Source: a phage
Length of the DNA stretch: 64,000 nucleotides
NCBI GenBank assembly: GCA_018509705.1
Contig: GCA_018509705.1_3630.1
Direction: 5' to 3' (one strand)
Below the pieces are notes generated by a model. That model saw nothing but the letters and a program-made list of their open reading frames with translations, searched no databases and was not told the origin of the DNA. Positions 1,786-49,083 of the stretch are shown in pieces; positions within the stretch are counted from its first letter, which is position 1; the number at the start of each line of letters is the position of its first letter. The position numbers and the translations under genes are program-made.

Positions 1786-2700
1786 ATGAAGTATTTTAAT
1801 GCAGACGACCTAGTTGACAAAGGTCTTGTAACCAGCAGATATTACCCAGATCTTGGGTTAAAGATCTATAAATATGCCAGAAAAGTATTCTACAACAACT
1901 TATGGCATTTGTCTCCTCGATTACTGGAGTGCCGAGGCATTGTTGTCGGTAATGAAGGAAATGTTGTGGCATGGCCCTTCACAAAAGTGTTTAACTTGGG
2001 AGAAAACTCCACCAACCTGCCTGACAATAAGCTTGTGACGGCGGTAGAGAAAAAGAACGGATTCCTTGGTGTGGTGTCATCTCATAAAGGTGAACTATTG
2101 TTCTCAACAACCGGGTCTCTTGATTCTCCATATTGTAACCTTGCAAAGGAAACCATCCAGGAGCAATGCAGTAATTTAGATCTTATCAAGAAGGTTATGG
2201 GCAATGAAAACATGACATTCATGTTTGAAATTTGTCACCCTTCAGATCCGCATATTGTTCAGGAAGATCATGGTGCATATTTGATAGGTTGCAGATATAA
2301 TGATTCTGGAATAATGCTACCAGAAGCAGCTTTAGATGGGATTGCCAAATACCTTGGTGCAAAACGTCCTCACACTGTGCGTGAAATTCCGTTCAGTTAT
2401 GCAAAAGAATTGGCTGCAGAAACAAGAGGTGAAGGGTATATGATTCGTAAGCCTTACTACCCTTATGATCTGCAGCTGAAGATTAAGTCTCCATACTATC
2501 TGGCACGGAAGGCCGTAATGAGGGGTAAAGCTTGGAAGATTTGGGATGATGATATCTTTAAACGTGTTGACGAAGAGTTTTACGGCATGGTAAACTTCAT
2601 TCGTAACAACTACACAGAGGATGTATGGAACTGCCTCCTGGAGCAGGAACGCCGTGAGATACTTGATTACTATTTCCACAACGAGAACTATATGCAATGA
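1786..2700 (+). CDS. Nucleotidyltransferase-superfamily polynucleotide ligase, probably RNA ligase
   Basis: Motif I-like EKKNGF (KxNG), motif IV EGYMIRK, motif V LKIKSP; start set at second ATG (1786) preceded by GAGGA. Confidence 0.5.
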   Translation: MKYFNADDLVDKGLVTSRYYPDLGLKIYKYARKVFYNNLWHLSPRLLECRGIVVGNEGNVVAWPFTKVFNLGENSTNLPDNKLVTAVEKKNGFLGVVSSHKGELLFSTTGSLDSPYCNLAKETIQEQCSNLDLIKKVMGNENMTFMFEICHPSDPHIVQEDHGAYLIGCRYNDSGIMLPEAALDGIAKYLGAKRPHTVREIPFSYAKELAAETRGEGYMIRKPYYPYDLQLKIKSPYYLARKAVMRGKAWKIWDDDIFKRVDEEFYGMVNFIRNNYTEDVWNCLLEQERREILDYYFHNENYMQ

Positions 2701-3047
2701 AGAAGTTGATTGTGTGGCTAGATGACTTGAGAGATCCGTCAAATTATGGGCTCCCAGACGCTATTTGGCTAAAGAATTCCTCCGAGTTTATGGATTTTAT
2801 TAACGATAATAAAAAGCTCTACAGACGCGTTTCTGAGTGGCATATGGACAACGACCTTGGAGAGGTATTCGAAGGGTACGATTGCCTATCCATGTTGGAG
2901 GAAAAGTTTGTATTTGGTAAGCCTCCTGTAGTTGACAACGTGAAGATTTTCGTGCATACTTCTAACCCATCAGCGGCTCGTAAATTCATGCTTGCGACTG
3001 ACTCGTTTAAAAAGTTTGGAATAGAGATTAAACAAAACATCTACTGA
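2697..3047 (+). CDS. Hypothetical protein
   Basis: 116-aa ORF overlapping upstream stop (ATGA coupling); no motif recognised. Confidence 0.45.
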   Translation: MKKLIVWLDDLRDPSNYGLPDAIWLKNSSEFMDFINDNKKLYRRVSEWHMDNDLGEVFEGYDCLSMLEEKFVFGKPPVVDNVKIFVHTSNPSAARKFMLATDSFKKFGIEIKQNIY

Positions 3048-3055
3048 GGACACTT

Positions 3056-3817
3056 ATGCGACGACTGATTGTTATCTCCGGTGCTGGTTTGAGTGCTGAA
3101 TCTGGTATTCCCACTTTCCGATCTGGTAGCACTGCAATGTGGGAGAATTTCAGCATCGATGAGGTGTGCAACATCCACACCTTTGCCAAGAACTACTATA
3201 AGGTGCATGACTTTTACAATGCACGTCGTGTAGCTTTAGGCAGTGTTGAGCCTAACCTTGCACATCTTCGGATCGCTGAGTGGTATTCCCGCTGGTCTGG
3301 TCGTGTGATCAACCTTACCACCAATGTAGATGATTTGCTGGAGCGTGCTGGTGTAAAACATGAAGATATTTTACATGTCCACGGGTATTTGCCAGAAATA
3401 GTCTATGAGGACGATGAAGGAAGTGACGTCATTAAGGACATTGGATACTCTGAGGTAGACGCAGGAAAGTATACCTGGGTTAAGCCTAATGTGGTGTTCT
3501 TCGGAGAAGTAGCTCCGAAGTATACAGACATGTATGACCTGTTGACTTCTCTTACGAGCAATGATATGGTTATCCTTGTAGGGTGCTCCAACACAGTTAT
3601 CAATTTTAACTGGGAGCTATTCCCTGCCTGCAATAAGGGAACCAAACTACTGATCGTTAATAAATACGACTCACAGCATCTAGAGGAGAATGGCATTTCA
3701 CGTAGTGATATTTACCAGTATGAGGATCGCGGCATCCCAGTTTGGTTTAACGGTGCGGTTGATGCCTTCTCTGATAAAACATTCATTGAGACTGTAGAAA
3801 ACTTTATGGAACTTTAA
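3056..3817 (+). CDS. Sir2-family (sirtuin-like) protein lacking the zinc-ribbon cysteines
   Basis: GAGLSAESGIPTFRSG (GAGxSxxSGIPxFR), TTNVDDLLERAG (TQNID-like), HVHG catalytic His, VVFFGE; no CxxC pairs. Confidence 0.75.
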   Translation: MRRLIVISGAGLSAESGIPTFRSGSTAMWENFSIDEVCNIHTFAKNYYKVHDFYNARRVALGSVEPNLAHLRIAEWYSRWSGRVINLTTNVDDLLERAGVKHEDILHVHGYLPEIVYEDDEGSDVIKDIGYSEVDAGKYTWVKPNVVFFGEVAPKYTDMYDLLTSLTSNDMVILVGCSNTVINFNWELFPACNKGTKLLIVNKYDSQHLEENGISRSDIYQYEDRGIPVWFNGAVDAFSDKTFIETVENFMEL

Positions 3818-4917: not shown

Positions 4918-5173
4918 TCTTGCTAAACCTGTAGAAGCACACCAGTTTGACGGAAGCTCTTCATCAGTATCTGATCTGCAACGGTGGATTGATACAGGTG
5001 TGTTTACATCGTCACCTGTTCGGACCAGAGATCTTCGTCGTATGTGTGAGCTTGTAGAGCCGTTTGGTAACCTAGTCTTGTACCAGGGTGATTGGCTTGT
5101 TGATTTTATGGGTGACTGGTTGGTAATGAGTAAAGAAGAGATGTTTAAAATTTTTAAGGAAGAGGTAGAGTAA
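4904..5173 (+). CDS. Hypothetical protein
   Basis: 89-aa ORF; stop overlaps ligase start. Confidence 0.4.
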   Translation: MPLFNLAKPVEAHQFDGSSSSVSDLQRWIDTGVFTSSPVRTRDLRRMCELVEPFGNLVLYQGDWLVDFMGDWLVMSKEEMFKIFKEEVE

Positions 5174-6438
5174 TGCATCAATTCAAAACAACACTTTATG
5201 CTCGCAATAAAGACGGGTCCATCCAGATGTGGAAAGTAGATACAAGCGGCAACGAGGTTATTGTTGTGTTCGGCAGGGTTGGTGGCGCTGTACAATCAAA
5301 AACCACAAAATGTGAAGCCAAAAACATCGGGCGATCCAACGAAACTACAGCAGAAGAACAAGCTGTTTTAGAGGCGCAGTCTAAATGGGAAAAGCAAGTC
5401 CGGCTGGGTTACAAAGAAAATGTCGAAGACCTTGAGGCCATTGACATTTCACCTATGCTGGCGCAAGATGCTTCGAAAAAACCACACGCTATTGTGTATC
5501 CATGCCACCTGCAACACAAACTTGACGGGAACCGTTGCTTTGTCAAATTCGTAGACGGTGTACCTAAATTCATCTCTCGCGGTAACAAAGTGTATGAGCC
5601 GAAAGGTAACATCCTCCGTGAGCTACAAGACCTGCATGAAGAAACAGGCTTTGATGAATTTGATGGGGAGTTCTACATTCACGGTTTACCGTTGCAGAAA
5701 ATAACCTCCCTCGTTAAGAAATGGCGTAGTCTGGAAGACATTGAGAAAGAAATTGATAAGGATTTCATGGCAGACATAAAACGCCGTGAGAAAGCGATCA
5801 AGGCCGGAGAGGAGACATGGAAAGACTTCAACAAGGTTGATCATCCGGTTTATGAAGAACCTGTCCGTGATTCTGATCGGTATGGAGGTTACTGCTCTTA
5901 TGACCTGAAACTGATGGTGTTCGATGTTCCTGATTGCATCCATCGCTGGGAAGATCGGGCCACAAATCTTCAGGAAGTTATTGATTATTGTGAAGTTAAC
6001 CATCTCACAAACGTCGAGGGTGTTCCTTTCAAGATCGCCTACAACGAGGAAGAGGTTCGCAACTCCATCGGACAGTACATGCAGGAAGGTTATGAAGGAT
6101 CTATTATTCGTAACTTCTGTGGCACCTACGAATACGGTCAACGCTCTACTGATCTGCTCAAGTGGAAACTGTTCACCGATGTTGAAGCAAAAGTGATCGG
6201 TGTTGAAAAAGATAAAAACGGGGAAGGTGTTCTTATCTGCGAAGAGAAAGATGGGACACAATGCAAATGCAAAATGAAAGGCACTTTTGCCGTAAGGAAC
6301 TACGAAAAATGCTGCTCATATGTTGGCAAATTTATCACGATAAAATTCCAACAGCGTACGGTGGACGGTGTGCCTCAATTCCCTGTGGGTATCGCATTCC
6401 GCAATCTTAATCCAGAAACTTGGGAGGTGCTGGAATAA
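5173..6438 (+). CDS. ATP-dependent DNA ligase
   Basis: Motif I HKLDGNR (KxDGxR), FDGEFYIHG, EGSIIRN, LKWK. Confidence 0.75.
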   Translation: MHQFKTTLYARNKDGSIQMWKVDTSGNEVIVVFGRVGGAVQSKTTKCEAKNIGRSNETTAEEQAVLEAQSKWEKQVRLGYKENVEDLEAIDISPMLAQDASKKPHAIVYPCHLQHKLDGNRCFVKFVDGVPKFISRGNKVYEPKGNILRELQDLHEETGFDEFDGEFYIHGLPLQKITSLVKKWRSLEDIEKEIDKDFMADIKRREKAIKAGEETWKDFNKVDHPVYEEPVRDSDRYGGYCSYDLKLMVFDVPDCIHRWEDRATNLQEVIDYCEVNHLTNVEGVPFKIAYNEEEVRNSIGQYMQEGYEGSIIRNFCGTYEYGQRSTDLLKWKLFTDVEAKVIGVEKDKNGEGVLICEEKDGTQCKCKMKGTFAVRNYEKCCSYVGKFITIKFQQRTVDGVPQFPVGIAFRNLNPETWEVLE

Positions 6439-6561
6439 TGTAGGAAGGTCTAGTAGGTAACGGTAACCAATTGAATGATGGTTTTCAATTGGCACCTACA
6501 TAACCACACTATGCAGTGTTGTTGATCGGGTTAGTTATGAGTAAACTGGAGAGTATGAAAA

Positions 6562-7050
6562 ATGAAACTTGATAAAAATGTTCAACGAAAAGCTTTCTTG
6601 GATATGATCGCATATTCGGAAGGAACAGATAATGGTAGACAACCTACCAAGGATCGGGGGTACGATGTCATAGTCGGCGGCAAGCTGTTCAGCGATTACA
6701 GCAAGCATCCCGGTGTTTACGTTAAGCTAAATGCTAAACTTACCTCCTCCGCTGCTGGGCGTTACCAGGTTTTGGAGAAGTTTGCTAAACACTACATGAA
6801 ACAGTTAGGATTACCAGATTTTGGCCCTGCCAGTCAGGACAAGATTGCGTTGCAACTGATCCGTGAGTGCAAGGCTCTCGCCGACATTGATGAAGGGCGT
6901 ATTCATCAGGCCATTTATAAATGCCGCAGCCGCTGGGCAAGCTTCCCACCACCGCCAGGGGCTGGAAAGCTGTACAATCAGCGAGCAGAAAGTATAGACA
7001 AGATGCTGGAGATCTTTAAGAGGGCAGGTGGAGTTGTTACAGATGAGTAA
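6562..7050 (+). CDS. Endolysin, lambda R-type lytic transglycosylase
   Basis: Near-colinear similarity to phage lambda R as recalled (QRKAFLDM..SEGTDNGRQ..GYDVIVGG..AGRYQ). Confidence 0.9.
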   Translation: MKLDKNVQRKAFLDMIAYSEGTDNGRQPTKDRGYDVIVGGKLFSDYSKHPGVYVKLNAKLTSSAAGRYQVLEKFAKHYMKQLGLPDFGPASQDKIALQLIRECKALADIDEGRIHQAIYKCRSRWASFPPPPGAGKLYNQRAESIDKMLEIFKRAGGVVTDE

Positions 7051-7723
7051 CGGGATTGACTGGTGGAGTGTCTTTAGATACGATACAGGCACTGGAAGGT
7101 TGTTTTGGAAGTCCCCACCAAAAAACAAACCTCAACTAATGGGAAAGGAGGCTGGATGTACTAACAACGGGTACAGGGATATAGTCTATCGTGGCGTGCA
7201 TTACTACAGGCATAGATTGGTGTGGGAGATGCATTATGGACCAATCCCAGAAGGGTACGAAGTTGATCACATAAAGCCACTTTTCTATTCCGACGGTGTT
7301 GCGGATGATAGGGTAGAAAACCTACAACTGTTAACACCAGAAGAAAATGCAAAAAAGGCGGCAGATGACGGATGCCTGGCACGCAAGATACCTAAATCCA
7401 ATACTGGACATTTGGGTGTATATTTTCATGCTAGATCTGGAAGGTATGCTGCTTTTGGTAAGGTAGGTCATTACTATAAGAAAGACCTAGGAGAATACGA
7501 TACCTTAGAAGAGGCCATTGCTGCTCAAAAGTCTTTTGAAAGTGGCACGTTTGTCAGGGAATATCGTGGACAGCCTTTAGGGAGGGATAAATCTAGAGGT
7601 GTCAGATTTGAAGCAGATAGGGGCAAATGGAAAGTAACTTTCAGAGGAAAAACGCTAGGCAGGTTTGACACCAAAGAGTCTGCTGAAGCGTGTTACGCAA
7701 AGGCTCTTACTGAAAGCTTGTAA
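7043..7723 (+). CDS. HNH homing endonuclease with AP2-like DNA-binding domain
   Basis: HRLVWEMHYGPIPEGYEVDHIKP...NLQLLTPEEN (HNH) plus TGHLGVYFHARSGRYAAFG (AP2-like); start at in-frame ATG 7043. Confidence 0.7.
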   Translation: MSNGIDWWSVFRYDTGTGRLFWKSPPKNKPQLMGKEAGCTNNGYRDIVYRGVHYYRHRLVWEMHYGPIPEGYEVDHIKPLFYSDGVADDRVENLQLLTPEENAKKAADDGCLARKIPKSNTGHLGVYFHARSGRYAAFGKVGHYYKKDLGEYDTLEEAIAAQKSFESGTFVREYRGQPLGRDKSRGVRFEADRGKWKVTFRGKTLGRFDTKESAEACYAKALTESL

Positions 7724-7791
7724 CAGTATCATTGACATAACCACACGGACGTGGTATTGTCACCTCATAAAATGTTTGAGAGGGTTTAACC

Positions 7792-7998
7792 ATGAAAGAT
7801 TTTCTGTTGGCAATTTTGTTCATGGCGGCATGTCTGGCCTGTGGTGTAGTGTTTGCAGGTGAAACAGCGTATCTTGTCGATGTATATCGGGACAATGGTA
7901 AACGTATTTGCCTTTATGAGACAAGCCAAGGTGAGCTCTACGAACTTGTGAAACAAGGAGAGGCAGGTTCCTGCCCTCGTACCCATTTCTTTGAATGA
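7792..7998 (+). CDS. Putative small lipoprotein
   Basis: N-terminal hydrophobic signal with lipobox-like FMAAC/LAC motif; 68 aa. Confidence 0.4.
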   Translation: MKDFLLAILFMAACLACGVVFAGETAYLVDVYRDNGKRICLYETSQGELYELVKQGEAGSCPRTHFFE

Positions 7999-8007
7999 GG
8001 AGGATAC

Positions 8008-8472
8008 GTGGAAGACGGACGTTTAATGAAGTCTGAACGCAGGCTTATTGTGCAACTGATCCCAGAAACAGCTTGGTATAATAACCTCCGAAACGCTGTA
8101 AAGAAGAGTGAGTGGGATAAGATCCGCAAGAAGTGCTATAGAGAAGCCAACTACACCTGTGAGGTGTGCGGCGGTAAAGGCAGCAAACACCCAGTGGAGT
8201 GTCATGAACTTTACACTTTCGAAGAGGGAGTGATCCGGCTTGTCGGACTGATAGCGTTGTGCCCAGATTGTCACACATCGGTGCATCCTGGGTTAGCAAA
8301 TATTCGTGGAAAGTATGCTCAGGCAGTTAATCAGTTGGCTAAGGTGAATAAGATCACCAGAGGTATGGCAGAGGCGTATTACCGAGACTGCTTTGCAGAG
8401 TGGCGCGAGCTTAGTAAAGTTCCAGAATGGAAGACTGACTTTTCGTGGATAGAGGATTACCTTGATGGCTAA
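8008..8472 (+). CDS. HNH endonuclease (zinc-binding)
   Basis: CEVCG...ECHE...CPDCH cysteine/histidine arrangement; GAGGAGGA RBS upstream. Confidence 0.65.
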   Translation: MEDGRLMKSERRLIVQLIPETAWYNNLRNAVKKSEWDKIRKKCYREANYTCEVCGGKGSKHPVECHELYTFEEGVIRLVGLIALCPDCHTSVHPGLANIRGKYAQAVNQLAKVNKITRGMAEAYYRDCFAEWRELSKVPEWKTDFSWIEDYLDG

Positions 8473-8755
8473 GAGATCTGTAAAAGAGAAATTCGATAAG
8501 ACAGCTTTTGTATTCGATACACCTCTGGACGATATCATCAGAGGTATGCAAGCCTTGTATCGGAAGGCTGAATCTGAGCAGTTGTCTGAATCAGAACTTT
8601 ACTGGCTTGGTTGGTGGGAGTTAAACCTGCCTAGAGCTGAAAGTTCTTGTCTGAGAACTGTTAAAACGTGCGCCCAAGAAAACGCTGCACTTGGAATCTA
8701 CCACAAAAGGAAAAGATCAACAAAAAGCTCTCCAAGAAAGACTAAAAAGTCTTGA
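8462..8755 (+). CDS. Hypothetical protein
   Basis: 97-aa ORF; no motif recognised. Confidence 0.35.
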   Translation: MMAKRSVKEKFDKTAFVFDTPLDDIIRGMQALYRKAESEQLSESELYWLGWWELNLPRAESSCLRTVKTCAQENAALGIYHKRKRSTKSSPRKTKKS

Positions 8756-8781
8756 CAAAAGTGTTATTAATCTGATATTAT
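8752..8781 (+). promoter_or_regulatory. Sigma70-type promoter (TTGACA-18-TATTAT)
   Basis: Exact -35 and near-consensus -10 upstream of ORF at 8815. Confidence 0.55.
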
Positions 8782-8814
8782 CGGTCAGATATCTATAAAC
8801 TAGGAGAACTAGAT

Positions 8815-9123
8815 ATGCTTAAAATTTTTATTGTTGAAGATAAAGATATTGTCCAGTTGTATGCAAACGAGAATCATAAAGGTATGATTCTGAAGAAGGC
8901 AAGCAACCTTCATGAAAACACAATTCAACCTGGCGATGTAATTAAGATCTGTGGTTATATGATACCAGACTCCTTGATGAAAATAACCCACCACTGGGGG
9001 TCTAATCCGTTCCTTTTTGAAAAGTATTGGGATGTTGAGTCACTTATTGCAGAGAGTGATGATGCATTCCATTACAGCATCCAACCATCTTGCAGAATAA
9101 CTAACAGGAGGGTCTTTGAGTAG
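8815..9123 (+). CDS. Hypothetical protein
   Basis: 102-aa ORF downstream of promoter with AGGAG RBS. Confidence 0.45.
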   Translation: MLKIFIVEDKDIVQLYANENHKGMILKKASNLHENTIQPGDVIKICGYMIPDSLMKITHHWGSNPFLFEKYWDVESLIAESDDAFHYSIQPSCRITNRRVFE

Positions 9124-10255
9124 AGAATATCCACTTATTGAGTCCATAGATTGTCTGGCTGATCTTCTTGAACCTGACGCTATAGTTTATTATGACTTCG
9201 ATCAGGTTGCATATCAAGCTGCAGCAAGTTGTGAAAAAAGGACAATTGAGGTAACACACAAAGCCTCCGGACGTAAGAAGATGTTTAAAACACGAACAGA
9301 GTTCTGGGGGCGGCAGAAGAACACCGTTGGTGGTTGGTTAAAAGCTGAGAATACCAACCGTGAAGCTGCATGTAAAAAGGCTGGCAAGGAGTTTATTCCG
9401 TGGACACGAGAAGATTTCGATGTCTTGGATATCCAAACCCCTGATCCTGTAGAGAACTGCTTGCACACAATTAAGTGTAAAGCTAATGCAGTCCTTAATT
9501 ATCTCGGTATTCCGGAAGATCGGTGCGTGGGGGTACTTGGAGGCACAGGTAATTTCAGACTAGATCTTCCCATGCCGGAAAGATATAAAGCCAACCGTAA
9601 CAATACTCTTCGACCACTGCTGCTTGGAGATGCAAGACAGTATCTCCAAAAGCAGTATAATGCTCAAGTGATCAACGGTATCGAGGCTGACGACTGGTTA
9701 GCTATCCAGCAATTTGAAGGTTGGAATCACTACCAAAAAACAGGTAAGTTCAACAAGTTTATTATCTCTATTGATAAGGACCAAAGAACACTACCGGGGC
9801 TTGTGTTCGATCCCATGCGAAACGATAAGGGAGATTTTGTAAGAGAAACCCCTATGCTGATCGATAACGGTATGGGGAACATCTTCATGAAGCCTAATGG
9901 AGAGGTTGGTGGTTACGGAATGCTGTTCTTCGGATACCAAATGCTGTGTGGTGACTCTGCTGACAACATCAAGCCGTATCAGGGACTTATCGGTAAGGGT
10001 AAGTTCGGAGATGCCTCAGCATTCTACCTACTGTCTCAGTGCAGCACTCCAAAGGAGATGTGGATGGCTATTATTGATCAGTACAAGAAGTGGTTCCCGA
10101 AAGGTGTTGTTAAGTATACTGACTTCAATGGTATTGATCGTAGAATTTCCGTAGGTCAATGGATGAGTATAATTTTTGACTGTTTGTATATGAAGCGAAC
10201 ATTCAATGATCAAACAAAACTTGTTAACGTTCTTAGAAATGTTGGAGCAATTTGA
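9116..10255 (+). CDS. 5'-3' exonuclease / flap endonuclease-like (RNase H-like)
   Basis: GIEADDWLA matches the GxEADD motif of FEN/5' nucleases; TTG start with AGGAGG RBS. Confidence 0.5.
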   Translation: MSREYPLIESIDCLADLLEPDAIVYYDFDQVAYQAAASCEKRTIEVTHKASGRKKMFKTRTEFWGRQKNTVGGWLKAENTNREAACKKAGKEFIPWTREDFDVLDIQTPDPVENCLHTIKCKANAVLNYLGIPEDRCVGVLGGTGNFRLDLPMPERYKANRNNTLRPLLLGDARQYLQKQYNAQVINGIEADDWLAIQQFEGWNHYQKTGKFNKFIISIDKDQRTLPGLVFDPMRNDKGDFVRETPMLIDNGMGNIFMKPNGEVGGYGMLFFGYQMLCGDSADNIKPYQGLIGKGKFGDASAFYLLSQCSTPKEMWMAIIDQYKKWFPKGVVKYTDFNGIDRRISVGQWMSIIFDCLYMKRTFNDQTKLVNVLRNVGAI

Positions 10256-31595: not shown

Positions 31596-31832
31596 ATGAG
31601 TATAAATGTTGTGCTAATAGGTTACCTGGTAATGTCCGTTATAACAGCGGTATTCTTGACAGGTGTATGCATCGTGTCCAGACGAAGGGTGAAGTTTGAT
31701 GATTTTATCACCATCATCACTGCTGCACCTTTTTGGCCTGTTGTTATCTTCATCGTGATAATGTGCCTGGTTGATTACTACAAGAATATCCGTAAGGAGA
31801 AAAAGGAGGGTAGGGATGGAGACCGCACCTAA
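31596..31832 (+). CDS. Small membrane protein (two hydrophobic segments)
   Basis: Two hydrophobic stretches of about 20 aa each. Confidence 0.45.
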   Translation: MSINVVLIGYLVMSVITAVFLTGVCIVSRRRVKFDDFITIITAAPFWPVVIFIVIMCLVDYYKNIRKEKKEGRDGDRT

Positions 31833-45192: not shown

Positions 45193-45477
45193 TTAACGGT
45201 TTACGTAAGCTTTACCGTTTACGGTGATGGGCAGATCTTCCAGGTCTGGATCTTCCTTAAGGTCGCGAGCAAGCTCACCGCACCGGATACCCTCGAATCC
45301 GTAGTACTCTGTTGTGCCGTCATTAAAAGTTTTAGCGGCAAGGCATAAGCGATAAGTAACCCAGATTTGATTGACGGCATGGATATCCGTTAGATTAACC
45401 TCTTTTGCCAGCTCTTTAGCCATTACAGGCGCATTAAGTCCAACAACCAGGGCAACTACTGCGATCATCTTTTTCAT
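45193..45477 (-). CDS. Secreted/periplasmic protein with signal peptide
   Basis: N-terminal MKKMIAVVALVVGLNAPVMA; AAAGAGG RBS. Confidence 0.5.
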   Translation of the reverse strand: MKKMIAVVALVVGLNAPVMAKELAKEVNLTDIHAVNQIWVTYRLCLAAKTFNDGTTEYYGFEGIRCGELARDLKEDPDLEDLPITVNGKAYVNR

Positions 45478-48678: not shown

Positions 48679-49083
48679 TTATTTAAACGGCTGGTCCACA
48701 TATTTTCTATTCCTCTCAAATAGGCGATCCGCCTCAGTTAAACAAATCTCATGGGCGTGATCTCTGGTTTTAGCTTCATCGAAAACCTGTTGTGCAAGGC
48801 TGCAACGTAGGGAGACTGGAAGATCACTATAATAGGCGTTGACAAACGTTTGAGCGTCGTACAGGTCTGAAAATACTTTACCCTTTCTATTATTCCCCTT
48901 GTCAACAATTGCAAGGATAACCAATACAATAGTTGCAACCACCCCCAGGAAAATAGATATAATAAACCATAAAAAGGCGGATCTTCCCATCTTGCCAGCG
49001 ATCCAGGCGTTAAACAAGGCAACCAATACAGCCAAAATAATAAATTCCATTCTATGTACCTCTTTTACAGTTCTGATTAACAA
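48679..49083 (-). CDS. Membrane protein (two TM helices); start uncertain
   Basis: Hydrophobic segments FIILAVLVALFNAWIA and FLWFIISIFLGVVATIVLVILAIV. Confidence 0.45.
   Translation of the reverse strand: MLIRTVKEVHRMEFIILAVLVALFNAWIAGKMGRSAFLWFIISIFLGVVATIVLVILAIVDKGNNRKGKVFSDLYDAQTFVNAYYSDLPVSLRCSLAQQVFDEAKTRDHAHEICLTEADRLFERNRKYVDQPFK

Follow-up and report, generated by a model that had tools for sequence, protein, structure and literature searches.

Does the lambda R-type endolysin gene of an rV5-like E. coli phage lie in a lysis gene neighbourhood that two free-standing HNH endonuclease genes have colonised, as an earlier note on its DNA had proposed, or does it stand among genes of another kind? 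The question concerns four genes within the window, i.e. the whole stretch of 64,000 nucleotides that was analysed: the endolysin gene, an HNH-AP2 gene directly after it (here the first HNH gene), a small open reading frame taken for a lipoprotein (ORF 7792) and a second HNH gene. The reading that we favour, with a probability of about 0.8 for the explanation as a whole, is that the region forms part of a DNA replication and recombination block in which one lambda R-type endolysin gene is embedded, accompanied by a mobile first HNH gene, a secreted ORF 7792 product and a second HNH gene that belongs to the core genome, with the lysis genes of the phage dispersed.

Gene content of the locus

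The window belongs to a Vequintavirus, and coverage of the locus varies among its relatives; the literature on 'rV5_ev' records yielded nothing relevant. The phage is a large virulent myovirus that encodes rIIA/rIIB as well. Little about the locus is out of the ordinary, and annotations of it already exist for related phages. All four open reading frames were found where the earlier note had placed them (Table 1), with homology too strong for chance ORFs. Its description of their surroundings as a lysis gene neighbourhood had to be given up, as the endolysin is a single gene within a co-directional block of DNA ligase, exonuclease, EndoVII, DnaQ and RNR genes and thus stands alone among genes of DNA metabolism.

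The second HNH gene and the exonuclease gene of this block are separated by two small Vequintavirus-specific genes, which are called 'transposase-like' in annotations elsewhere. Pfam and PHROG searches found no transposase domain in either, and counterparts are missing from the same position in 4MG, CR3, W70 and KB57, four genomes of other lineages in which the exonuclease is found at 54-55% amino acid identity. A promoter is located at 8752-8781. The region is highly mosaic even without endonuclease involvement, as exemplified by two ligase alleles at 50-70% identity.

Table 1. Features of the locus and the holin candidate, in window coordinates.
Feature	Position	Length and start	Strand	Basis or remark
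Lambda R-type endolysin (lytic transglycosylase, GH104-like)	6562..7050	162 aa	+	Homology to PDB 1AM7; PHROG 90
Putatively replaced endolysin 3' end, FPPPPGAGKLYNQRAESIDKMLEIFKRAGGVVTDE	6939..7050	last ~36 codons	+	Identity drop; linkage to first HNH gene
First HNH gene, putative free-standing HNH_3 + AP2-like homing endonuclease gene	7043..7723	226 aa	+	Pfam; PHROG 99
Sigma-70-type promoter of ORF 7792, TTGACA-17-TATTGT with upstream TG	7732..7760		+	Annotated promoter P90 in rV5; right edge of inserted segment
ORF 7792, predicted small Sec-signal-peptide protein with two invariant cysteines	7792..7998	68 aa	+	PHROG 4641; alignments
Second HNH gene, core HNH-like zinc-finger protein	8008..8472	154 aa, GTG start	+	PHROG 5200
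Two small Vequintavirus-specific genes, 8462-8755 and 8815-9123	8462..9123		+	Between second HNH gene and exonuclease
5'-3' exonuclease gene	9116..10255		+	Conserved downstream partner of second HNH gene
Putative holin, orthologue of BASEL bas53_0113	48682..49050		-	Two TMDs; ~42 kb from endolysin

The endolysin and the first HNH gene

The classification as lambda R-type endolysin is borne out by homology to lambda lysozyme (PDB 1AM7) over the full length (E = 3.7e-49, residues 4-160 against 3-154); the protein also matched PHROG 90, 'endolysin', with E = 8e-52, and a Pfam search of it returned no match. Its AYSEGT segment aligns with AWSEGT of lambda, and a comparison of five Vequintavirus alleles showed that each of them keeps the SEGT motif with the catalytic Glu (Glu19 in lambda R). 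Neither a signal nor a SAR segment was detected, with no hydrophobic stretch above the TMD threshold within 6562-7050; the enzyme is predicted to be cytoplasmic and, as it has neither a signal nor a SAR domain, holin-dependent. Like lambda R (PDB 1AM7, 3D3D), to which it is ~58% identical over the full length, it carries the SEGT motif and would be a soluble protein devoid of a secretion signal. It differs from lambda R in its setting, since the latter sits in the S-R-Rz/Rz1 cassette and the former alone in a DNA-metabolism block, and in its C-terminal ~36 residues, which form a recombinant allele and include an inserted PPPP.

The ATG of the first HNH gene overlaps the endolysin stop codon (ATGAGTAA). 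Its product matched HNH_3 (PF13392) with 50.2 bits (cut-off 24.8), AP2 (PF00847) with 26.8 bits (E = 6.4e-6), which is below the gathering cut-off of 33.3, and PHROG 99 in two stretches, and its catalytic motif DH...N...N is intact (EVDHI...ENLQLL...EEN). The endolysin reading frame is continuous, i.e. the gene does not reside within an intron or intein, and an intron-borne endonuclease was rejected, as an Rfam scan at E <= 1 found no intron family at the locus. Two further candidates were discarded: an RNA hairpin controlling translation of the gene, the fold being no better than those of shuffled sequences (z = -0.77), and, as a recombination or promoter motif, the 11/12-mer ACATAACCACAC on the flanks of the endolysin unit, which occurs only twice in the window and is matched by a second perfect 12-mer pair present by chance within the same stretch of 1.8 kb.

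Among ~123 Vequintavirus records, 11 carry the first HNH gene, at one place each and always at the same locus; it is missing from rV5, JohannBauhin and LL12 and found in nimi. Where it is missing, the gap between the endolysin and ORF 7792 is only ~63 bp. The proposal that a mobile HNH-AP2 gene was inserted after the endolysin and separates ORF 7792 from it thus held, with the proviso on the AP2 score given above. Relatives of the gene at <=40% identity are scattered over ~480 unrelated phage genomes.

The segment that varies extends into the endolysin gene. Codons 1 to ~126 represent the common rV5-type allele, with 98-100% nucleotide identity to rV5 up to ~6938, and the last ~110 bp have 67-74% nucleotide identity to alleles without an endonuclease gene, compared to 98-100% just upstream. 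This tail allele, at 96-99% identity, is shared by all 11 carriers of the first HNH gene and by no other record; its nearest relative beyond these is the endolysin tail of the V18/EduardKellenberger type, with 82.6% identity over 92 nt. Judged from the alignment, the inserted segment has its left edge at ~6939 and its right edge just before the ORF 7792 promoter, the alleles all becoming alike again a few bases ahead of the -35 box. We interpret the tail as a co-converted flank or a cleavage-immune allele that is tied to the putative homing endonuclease gene.

Two more endonuclease genes of PHROG 99 were found at the endolysin of other Vequintavirus phages. One, of the DrSchubert type, lies downstream of the endolysin in 20 records; the other (HEG3), of the EduardKellenberger type, lies upstream in 4 intact copies, with further, decayed copies in JEP1 and V18. 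Each is accompanied by its own endolysin allele.

We propose that the endolysin mRNA probably serves for translation of the first HNH gene too. During mixed infection, the enzyme would cut the allele that lacks the endonuclease gene, within or close to the 3' end of the endolysin gene, and repair off the endonuclease-carrying genome would copy the gene together with a flank of ~110 bp. The outcome would be a chimeric but intact endolysin, the last ~36 codons of which stem from a more divergent, V18-like allele and are presumably no longer cut by the enzyme.

Presence and absence alone give no direction, and this gain by homing has to be weighed against loss by deletion. If the first HNH gene were ancestral and had been deleted in most lineages, its divergent tail would be due to ordinary homologous recombination and not to co-conversion, a course with precedents in the ligase alleles mentioned above and in the decay and loss of HEG3 in JEP1 and V18. 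We consider this unlikely in view of the perfect linkage between gene and tail allele (11/11), the intactness of the gene including its catalytic motif, the sharp edges of divergence, which match those of the endonuclease cassette, and the presence of three different endonuclease genes of one family at a single gene of ~0.5 kb, each linked to an endolysin allele of its own. Gain by homing being the preferred reading, we regard the first HNH gene as a probable mobile, free-standing homing endonuclease gene, whose homing activity and target are predicted from the pattern of alleles.

This pattern resembles that of SegF, SegG and similar free-standing homing endonuclease genes in T4-like phages, which reportedly bring about 'intronless homing' and localized marker exclusion; free-standing genes of this kind have reportedly been reviewed as a class. 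As with SegF and SegG, the first HNH gene is intergenic, free-standing, sporadic among close relatives and confined to one fixed site, with a short diverged tract in the neighbouring gene and different endonuclease genes in the same hot spot across lineages. Unlike them, it encodes an HNH_3 protein with putative AP2-like DNA-binding repeats and not a GIY-YIG enzyme, and the neighbour that it would target is an endolysin gene and not a DNA-metabolism gene. HNH-AP2 homing endonucleases are said to occur in phages and cyanobacteria; the first HNH gene shares with them and with PHROG 99 an HNH_3 domain followed by one or more putative AP2-like repeats, in a family that is widespread and patchy in enterobacterial phages, and differs in its AP2 score, below the Pfam threshold, and in that its closest relatives outside Vequintavirus are <=40% identical.

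The second HNH gene

In BASEL annotations, the second HNH gene starts at an alternative ATG at 8026. It matched PHROG 5200, 'HNH endonuclease', with E = 1e-72, this name being an annotation and not a test. Pfam gave no family at E <= 0.01, NCBIfam only IscB with 19 bits (cut-off 175), and a profile search against PDB sequences only weak HNH matches (E 0.02-0.4). In 24 diverse sequences, the core CExC...ECHE...CPxCH...H is invariant (C51, C54, C85, C88, H66, H89 and H93), as would be expected of an HNH protein with a CxxC...CxxC zinc site, a catalytic His and, on the helix, a metal-binding His or Asn. This motif can be aligned with the HNH domain of 6ME0, a group II intron maturase, and the canonical central Asn is absent from the family, the column facing the Asn of 6ME0 being occupied by Gly or Arg. 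An AF2 model with a pLDDT of 96.9 displays a beta-beta-alpha element composed of a hairpin (64-84) and a helix (86-91); a Foldseek search of this model against the PDB returned no HNH structure, with DotN as the best match (E = 0.11). As the canonical Asn, a Pfam HNH model and a Foldseek HNH match are all lacking, the label 'nuclease' refers to a weak sequence motif and a topology, and the protein should be seen as a putative nuclease only.

The gene was found in 240 phage records of several genera, at 241 places in total; every record except one has a single copy, and 119 of them match at 95-99% identity. Its orthologue is located directly upstream of the 5'-3' exonuclease gene in the four genomes of other lineages that were examined (4MG, CR3, W70, KB57), with the two small genes in between in Vequintavirus. 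Its divergence, ~50% amino acid identity, is in line with that of its neighbours (40-60%), and no close relatives without it were seen. Only one HNH gene is common to CB7 and CR3 (CB7 Table 3; PMC7344957). The second HNH gene is a vertically inherited core gene and not a mobile insertion, and its fixed place upstream of the exonuclease points to a function in the DNA metabolism of the phage.

These data decide against the view that the two HNH genes are selfish homing endonuclease genes which entered a lysis cassette recently. Both fall into PHROG families named 'HNH endonuclease', both are labelled 'putative homing endonuclease' in GenBank and BASEL records, and homologues of the second gene at ~44% identity exist outside the subfamily, in distant phages and in records labelled cyanobacterial. 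We nevertheless hold this view to be very unlikely, given the distribution, fixed synteny and neighbour-like divergence of the second gene and the fact that the genes around both belong to DNA metabolism and not to a lysis cassette. The ~44% homologues make an ancient horizontal acquisition of the second gene possible; the contigs of two of them, P0066 and P0103, look like large phage genomes and have no recurrent neighbour. Comparison of gene order with relatives gave a divided answer: the first HNH gene is variable, and the second, supposed to be a colonist as well, is invariant.

A precedent for a resident HNH protein would be gp74 of HK97, which is said to be a packaging cofactor. Like gp74, the second HNH gene encodes a small HNH-type protein, fixed and syntenic in a functional module and not selfish. 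Unlike gp74, it adjoins the 5'-3' exonuclease gene in a replication/recombination module and not the terminase, and it represents a distinct family (PHROG 5200) defined by CExC...ECHE...CPxCH, with neither the canonical Asn nor a Pfam model.

ORF 7792 and the dispersed lysis genes

ORF 7792 is a real, conserved gene of PHROG 4641 (E = 4e-28) with orthologues in Mydovirus, Seunavirus and W70, and its inheritance across the subfamily is not tied to that of the endolysin. A link to lysis via the gene found between its homologue and that of the second HNH gene in other genera was dismissed, this gene encoding a NADAR-domain protein or, in W70, a homing endonuclease. Two cysteines, C40 and C61, are invariant across the alignments, and all sequences have an AxA-type signal peptidase I motif in register (VFA|G, AWS|G, AWA|G, AFA|T, AHA|S), the signal peptide being assigned by the (-3,-1) rule and alignment. 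With 19 aa, the hydrophobic segment of the window copy is long and could alternatively be an uncleaved membrane anchor. An AF2 model (pLDDT 82) comprises the signal helix and a 4-stranded beta-sheet; searches for an informative fold had no success, the PDB matches (E >= 0.045) being limited to generic small beta-domains and those in BFVD to uncharacterised phage proteins. On these grounds, the product is predicted to be a small Sec-secreted periplasmic protein, probably with a disulfide bond.

A strict lipobox was found in none of the 13 sequences of the family. A relaxed, PROSITE-like lipobox (FMAAC, with Cys14) is confined to the window copy and three near-identical sequences; under PROSITE rule PS51257, Cys14 is too near the N-terminus. 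Both Cys14 and Cys17 are missing in seven orthologues (P0006-P0010, 4MG, KB57), and P0005 and W70 each have one N-terminal Cys outside a lipobox context.

The statement that no holin or spanin pair accompanies the endolysin was confirmed by a TMD scan, in which ORF 7792 was the only small TMD-containing ORF within ~18 kb of the endolysin, and by a search for spanin homologues, of which the window contains none. The spanin pair, for which the earlier note had suggested searching the rest of the genome, lies beside the large terminase gene, outside the window, ~10 kb from the endolysin and on the other strand (PMC6658697, PMC7344957). The o-spanin of LL12 has a true lipobox (LLCG|C), in contrast to ORF 7792. 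The only annotated holin candidate was the putative holin listed in Table 1, with 97.6% identity to bas53_0113 over 123 aa (tblastn); in a search with six small membrane proteins of the window and LL12 gp67, neither it nor any of the others matched known holin families. The lysis genes are thus dispersed, with the only annotated holin candidate ~42 kb away from the endolysin.

ORF 7792 is neither a lipoprotein nor a spanin. That it might be an outer-membrane lipoprotein after all, as an o-spanin or a Cor/Llp-like superinfection-exclusion lipoprotein, is extremely unlikely: the relaxed lipobox of four sequences and the position next to the endolysin in relatives without a homing endonuclease gene are outweighed by the consistent lack of a strict lipobox beside a conserved signal peptidase I motif, the absence of Cys14 and Cys17 from most orthologues, neighbours (endolysin or homing endonuclease gene on one side, second HNH gene on the other) that include no i-spanin gene, and the existence of the actual i/o-spanin pair, with its LLCG|C lipobox, next to TerL (PMC6658697, PMC7344957, PMC6139136). 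Half of the scenario of the earlier note is thereby refuted, by the invariant second HNH gene and by an ORF 7792 lacking a lipobox; the half that stands is the variable first HNH gene.

A more speculative thought, to which we attach little probability, is that ORF 7792 encodes a periplasmic regulator, be it an inhibitor of lytic transglycosylases or tail lysozyme like T4 Spackle, an antiholin-like timer like T4 RI, or a protein with an equivalent role in lysis or superinfection. T4 Spackle (Sp) and the RI antiholin are small secreted periplasmic proteins made before lysis. ORF 7792 would be comparable to them as a functional analogue only, being small, having a secretion signal at its N-terminus and being preceded by a sigma-70-type promoter of its own; no sequence or fold similarity to them was found, and its predicted fold is a 4-stranded beta-sheet with a Cys pair. 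If true, such a regulator would help explain how lysis is controlled without a recognisable lysis cassette.

Discussion

The value of the present findings is mostly corrective: they leave the current understanding of homing and lysis unchanged. The second HNH gene (rV5 gp087 family, PHROG 5200) bears the label 'homing endonuclease' in public records, as does the first; it behaves as a core gene of the Vequintavirinae that is linked to the 5'-3' exonuclease, and it should not be counted as selfish, nor dropped from core-gene phylogenies on that account. Likewise, ORF 7792 should be annotated as a conserved secreted mini-protein and not as a lipoprotein or spanin.

In Vequintavirus, the endolysin gene may have been targeted repeatedly, by at least three different HNH-AP2 homing endonucleases, and their co-conversion tracts may be the main driver of endolysin allele diversity, which ranges from 51% to 99% amino acid identity within one genus. 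In the rV5-like phages, which are used in phage-therapy and biocontrol cocktails, the endolysin comes as several alleles linked to homing endonuclease genes and as chimeras, and the lysis genes are dispersed.

Endonuclease gene 1 and the endolysin tail

Nucleotide searches with the interval 6000-9200 returned 123 phage records at 90-99% identity, nearly all of them Vequintavirus (rV5-like) myoviruses of E. coli. The full span was covered by none of the 123; matches fell into coverage classes of 88%, 75% and 64% and were often split into two pieces, which already indicated insertions or deletions at the locus. About 19-20 matching GenBank records (MG0656xx) are named 'Campylobacter phage ...' and are 97-98% identical to the E. 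coli rV5-like phages here; their host labels look doubtful.

The four open reading frames of the earlier note are all present (see table). Lambda lysozyme R (PDB 1AM7) matches the whole length of the endolysin (E = 3.7e-49), and the SEGT motif with the catalytic Glu lies within the alignment; the protein falls into PHROG 90 ('endolysin') and has no match in Pfam. Its stop codon is overlapped by the ATG of the first HNH gene, HNH no. 1 (ATGAGTAA), with GGAG 9 nt upstream; RNA folding gave no significant structure over this start, and no intron-like RNA was found at the endolysin/HNH no. 1 locus. The catalytic DH...N...N motif of HNH no. 1 is intact. A sensitive DNA search found the gene in only 11 records, once each and always at the endolysin locus; it is present in nimi and absent from rV5, JohannBauhin and LL12. 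Protein relatives (≤40% identity) turn up here and there in ~480 unrelated phage genomes, often in more than one copy and beside varied genes. HNH no. 1 behaves as a mobile element, and the earlier description of a free-standing HNH-AP2-type endonuclease gene beside the endolysin holds for this real and variable gene. It is annotated already in 11 GenBank records at ~97% identity.

In a multiple alignment, the last ~36 endolysin codons, from position ~6939 (right after ...CGCTGGGC), are swapped in frame for those of a divergent homologue, and at the right edge all alleles reconverge a few bases 5' of the -35 box of the sigma-70 promoter. Identity to relatives lacking the homing endonuclease gene (HEG) is 98-100% on either side and 67-74% in the endolysin tail only. 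Exactly the 11 records with HNH no. 1 have the same tail allele at 96-99% identity. The next closest tail (82.6% over 92 nt) belongs to the much more divergent V18/EduardKellenberger-type endolysin, and FPPPPGAGKLY... is common to both. HNH no. 1 with its linked divergent tail is the pattern expected of a moving free-standing HEG, which would travel with a co-converted flank or bring a cleavage-resistant version of its own target.

A perfect 12-mer, ACATAACCACAC, stands on either side of the endolysin-HEG unit (6498-6509 and 7735-7746), the second copy within the ORF 7792 promoter; these are its two occurrences in the whole window. It was rejected as a meaningful flank, because the same 1.8 kb holds another perfect 12-mer pair, unrelated to the first, which points to chance.

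Upstream, the DNA ligase gene (5173-6438) exists within the genus as two very divergent alleles with sharp edges (region 5100-6450) and flanks of 95-100% identity: one shared by the window, rV5 and DrSchubert (98-100%), the other by nimi, JohannBauhin and LL12, with just 50-70% nucleotide identity to the first. The window's combination of rV5-type ligase, nimi-type endolysin tail and HNH no. 1 occurs in 0 of the 123 records and is ordinary mosaicism. Four records named as rV5 derivatives ('rV5_ev...'; LR597647, LR694165, LR694610, LR694611) carry HNH no. 1 and the linked tail, both of which reference rV5 lacks, and their match, unlike that of rV5, begins only at ~6376; a literature search found no paper describing them.

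Features of the locus and of comparison loci
Feature	Sequence	Position	Strand	Remarks
Endolysin	window	6562-7050		lambda R-type
HNH no. 1	window	7043-7723		HNH_3 above Pfam threshold; AP2 E = 6e-6, under gathering score
Sigma-70 promoter	window	7732-7760		TTGACA-17-TATTGT, TG upstream; annotated P90 in rV5
ORF 7792	window	7792-7998		PHROG 4641, family with no assigned function
HNH no. 2	window	8008-8472		PHROG 5200 'HNH endonuclease'; passes no Pfam model
Two small genes	window	8462-8755, 8815-9123		named 'transposase-like'/'transposase' in rV5 and PHROG 14449
78-aa protein	window	31596-31832	+	two TMDs, highly charged C-tail
94-aa protein	window	45193-45477	-	clear signal peptide (...PVMA↓KE)
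Putative holin orthologue (BASEL)	window	48682-49050	-	97.6% identity
Upstream HEG	EduardKellenberger (L010)	1431-2147
Loci beside HNH no. 2/ORF 7792 homologues	4MG; KB57; CR3; W70	1851-3517; 2990-3496; 3071-3493; 2962-3471

HNH no. 2 as a core gene

Both HNH genes had been taken for colonists of the locus, and comparison of synteny bears this out for HNH no. 1, which varies, but not for HNH no. 2, whose place upstream of the exonuclease is fixed. By tblastn, HNH no. 2 occurs in 240 records, as one copy in all but one (241 places), 119 homologues being 95-99% identical and the rest, at ~36-57%, lying in other genera (Seunavirus, Certrevirus, Mydovirus, W70-like, Erwinia, Klebsiella and Pectobacterium phages). 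In 4MG, CR3, W70 and KB57 the orthologue is directly 5' of the 5'-3' exonuclease gene, followed in common order by two small ORFs, EndoVII, a small ORF and a DnaQ-like exonuclease. The neighbouring genes have diverged to the same degree as HNH no. 2 itself (~50%; exonuclease 54-55%, ORF 10584 39-49%, EndoVII 43-60%), and a table in the CB7 paper lists one HNH common to CB7 and CR3 (PMC7344957). HNH no. 2 is thus a core gene, a modestly new reassignment.

In Vequintavirus, two small genus-specific genes are inserted between HNH no. 2 and the exonuclease, with a strong promoter-like site at 8752-8781. Pfam found no transposase domain in either, and calling them transposases is probably an artefact of annotation. 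The gene directly 5' of the HNH no. 2 orthologue in other Vequintavirinae genera encodes a NADAR-domain protein; in W70 a PHROG 99 homing endonuclease gene adjoins the orthologue, and in ECP2303 (3252-3470) a 72-aa DUF7205 ORF, absent from the window, separates it from the ORF 7792 homologue.

The core of the family, CExCG...HPVECHE...ALCPxCHxxxHxG, is very strongly conserved and is placed on a beta-hairpin plus helix in an AF2 model (pLDDT 96.9), but the position of the canonical HNH Asn holds Gly or Arg, solved HNH domains match the family only marginally (E = 0.02-0.4), and Foldseek found no solved homologue for the model. The label we use for HNH no. 2 is therefore HNH-like zinc-finger protein; it probably acts as a nuclease in the replication/recombination module.

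ORF 7792 and the dispersed lysis genes

ORF 7792 had been read as lipoprotein-like. Its two N-terminal cysteines are not conserved (7 orthologues have none there), and a strict lipobox was found in no aligned sequence, in contrast to the true o-spanin of LL12 with its textbook LLCG↓C. Conserved throughout the family are a mature segment of ~46 residues with invariant C40 and C61 and, ahead of it, a basic n-region and a short hydrophobic core; an AxA-type motif for signal peptidase I is also kept in register (VFA↓G, AWS↓G, AFA↓T, AHA↓S). In the AF2 model four beta-strands form a sheet after the signal helix; fold searches with this model were uninformative. ORF 7792 is thus predicted from its sequence to be a secreted mini-protein rather than a lipoprotein. 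Homologues are 63-97% identical in close relatives and 33-38% in KB57, 4MG and W70, where the adjacent genes are SPFH/Band7 and NADAR-domain genes instead of the endolysin; in 4MG the 5' neighbour is an SPFH/Band7 'lipoprotein' gene.

Nor is the locus a lysis neighbourhood: the endolysin is embedded in a co-directional block of DNA-metabolism type (RNA ligase, Sir2, DNA ligase, exonucleases, EndoVII, methyltransferases, thymidylate synthase, RNR), and the spanins lie beside TerL elsewhere. In the LL12 record the other strand carries them, ~10 kb upstream of the endolysin; the announcement of that phage locates both the i-spanin and the o-spanin beside the large terminase and found the holin not identifiable (PMC6658697). 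Such dispersal of lysis genes is already documented for the subfamily: Kongari et al. assign the rV5 spanins to a family of 'separated' architecture (PMC6139136), and the CB7 paper describes CB7, rV5 and PVP-SE1 as without a classic lysis cassette and a SleB-like secreted hydrolase as subfamily-wide (PMC7344957). Annotated in full, JohannBauhin has its spanins beside TerL, a 'putative holin', and the SleB-like hydrolase gene 5' of rIIA/rIIB; of these, only the putative holin maps into the window. The 78-aa product resembles a class II holin. Neither it nor the holin orthologue, nor other small two-TMD proteins, matched a known holin family, and these two and the 94-aa protein matched no family of known function. 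The earlier observation is confirmed, and its interpretation was half right.

The endolysin as a hot spot for endonuclease genes

DrSchubert-type phages (20 records) have an endolysin just 51-55% identical to that of the window at the protein level. Directly 3' of it stands a different member of the PHROG 99 endonuclease family, and the flanks are almost those of the window (ligase 99.8%, ORF 7792 100%). In EduardKellenberger-type phages, a third PHROG 99/HNH_3 gene lies directly 5' of a 72%-identical endolysin; it is intact in 4 records, incomplete in JEP1 and for the most part gone from V18, where the linked endolysin allele is kept. The JEP1 and V18 remnants resemble the stage of decay in the life cycle of a homing endonuclease. 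With these three linked gene types, an endonuclease gene abuts the endolysin in about a third of Vequintavirus records, each with its own allele. Endonuclease genes of PHROG 99 have a hot spot at the endolysin. Modestly new are the chimeric endolysin tail and the finding that three endolysin alleles are each tightly linked to a different endonuclease gene.
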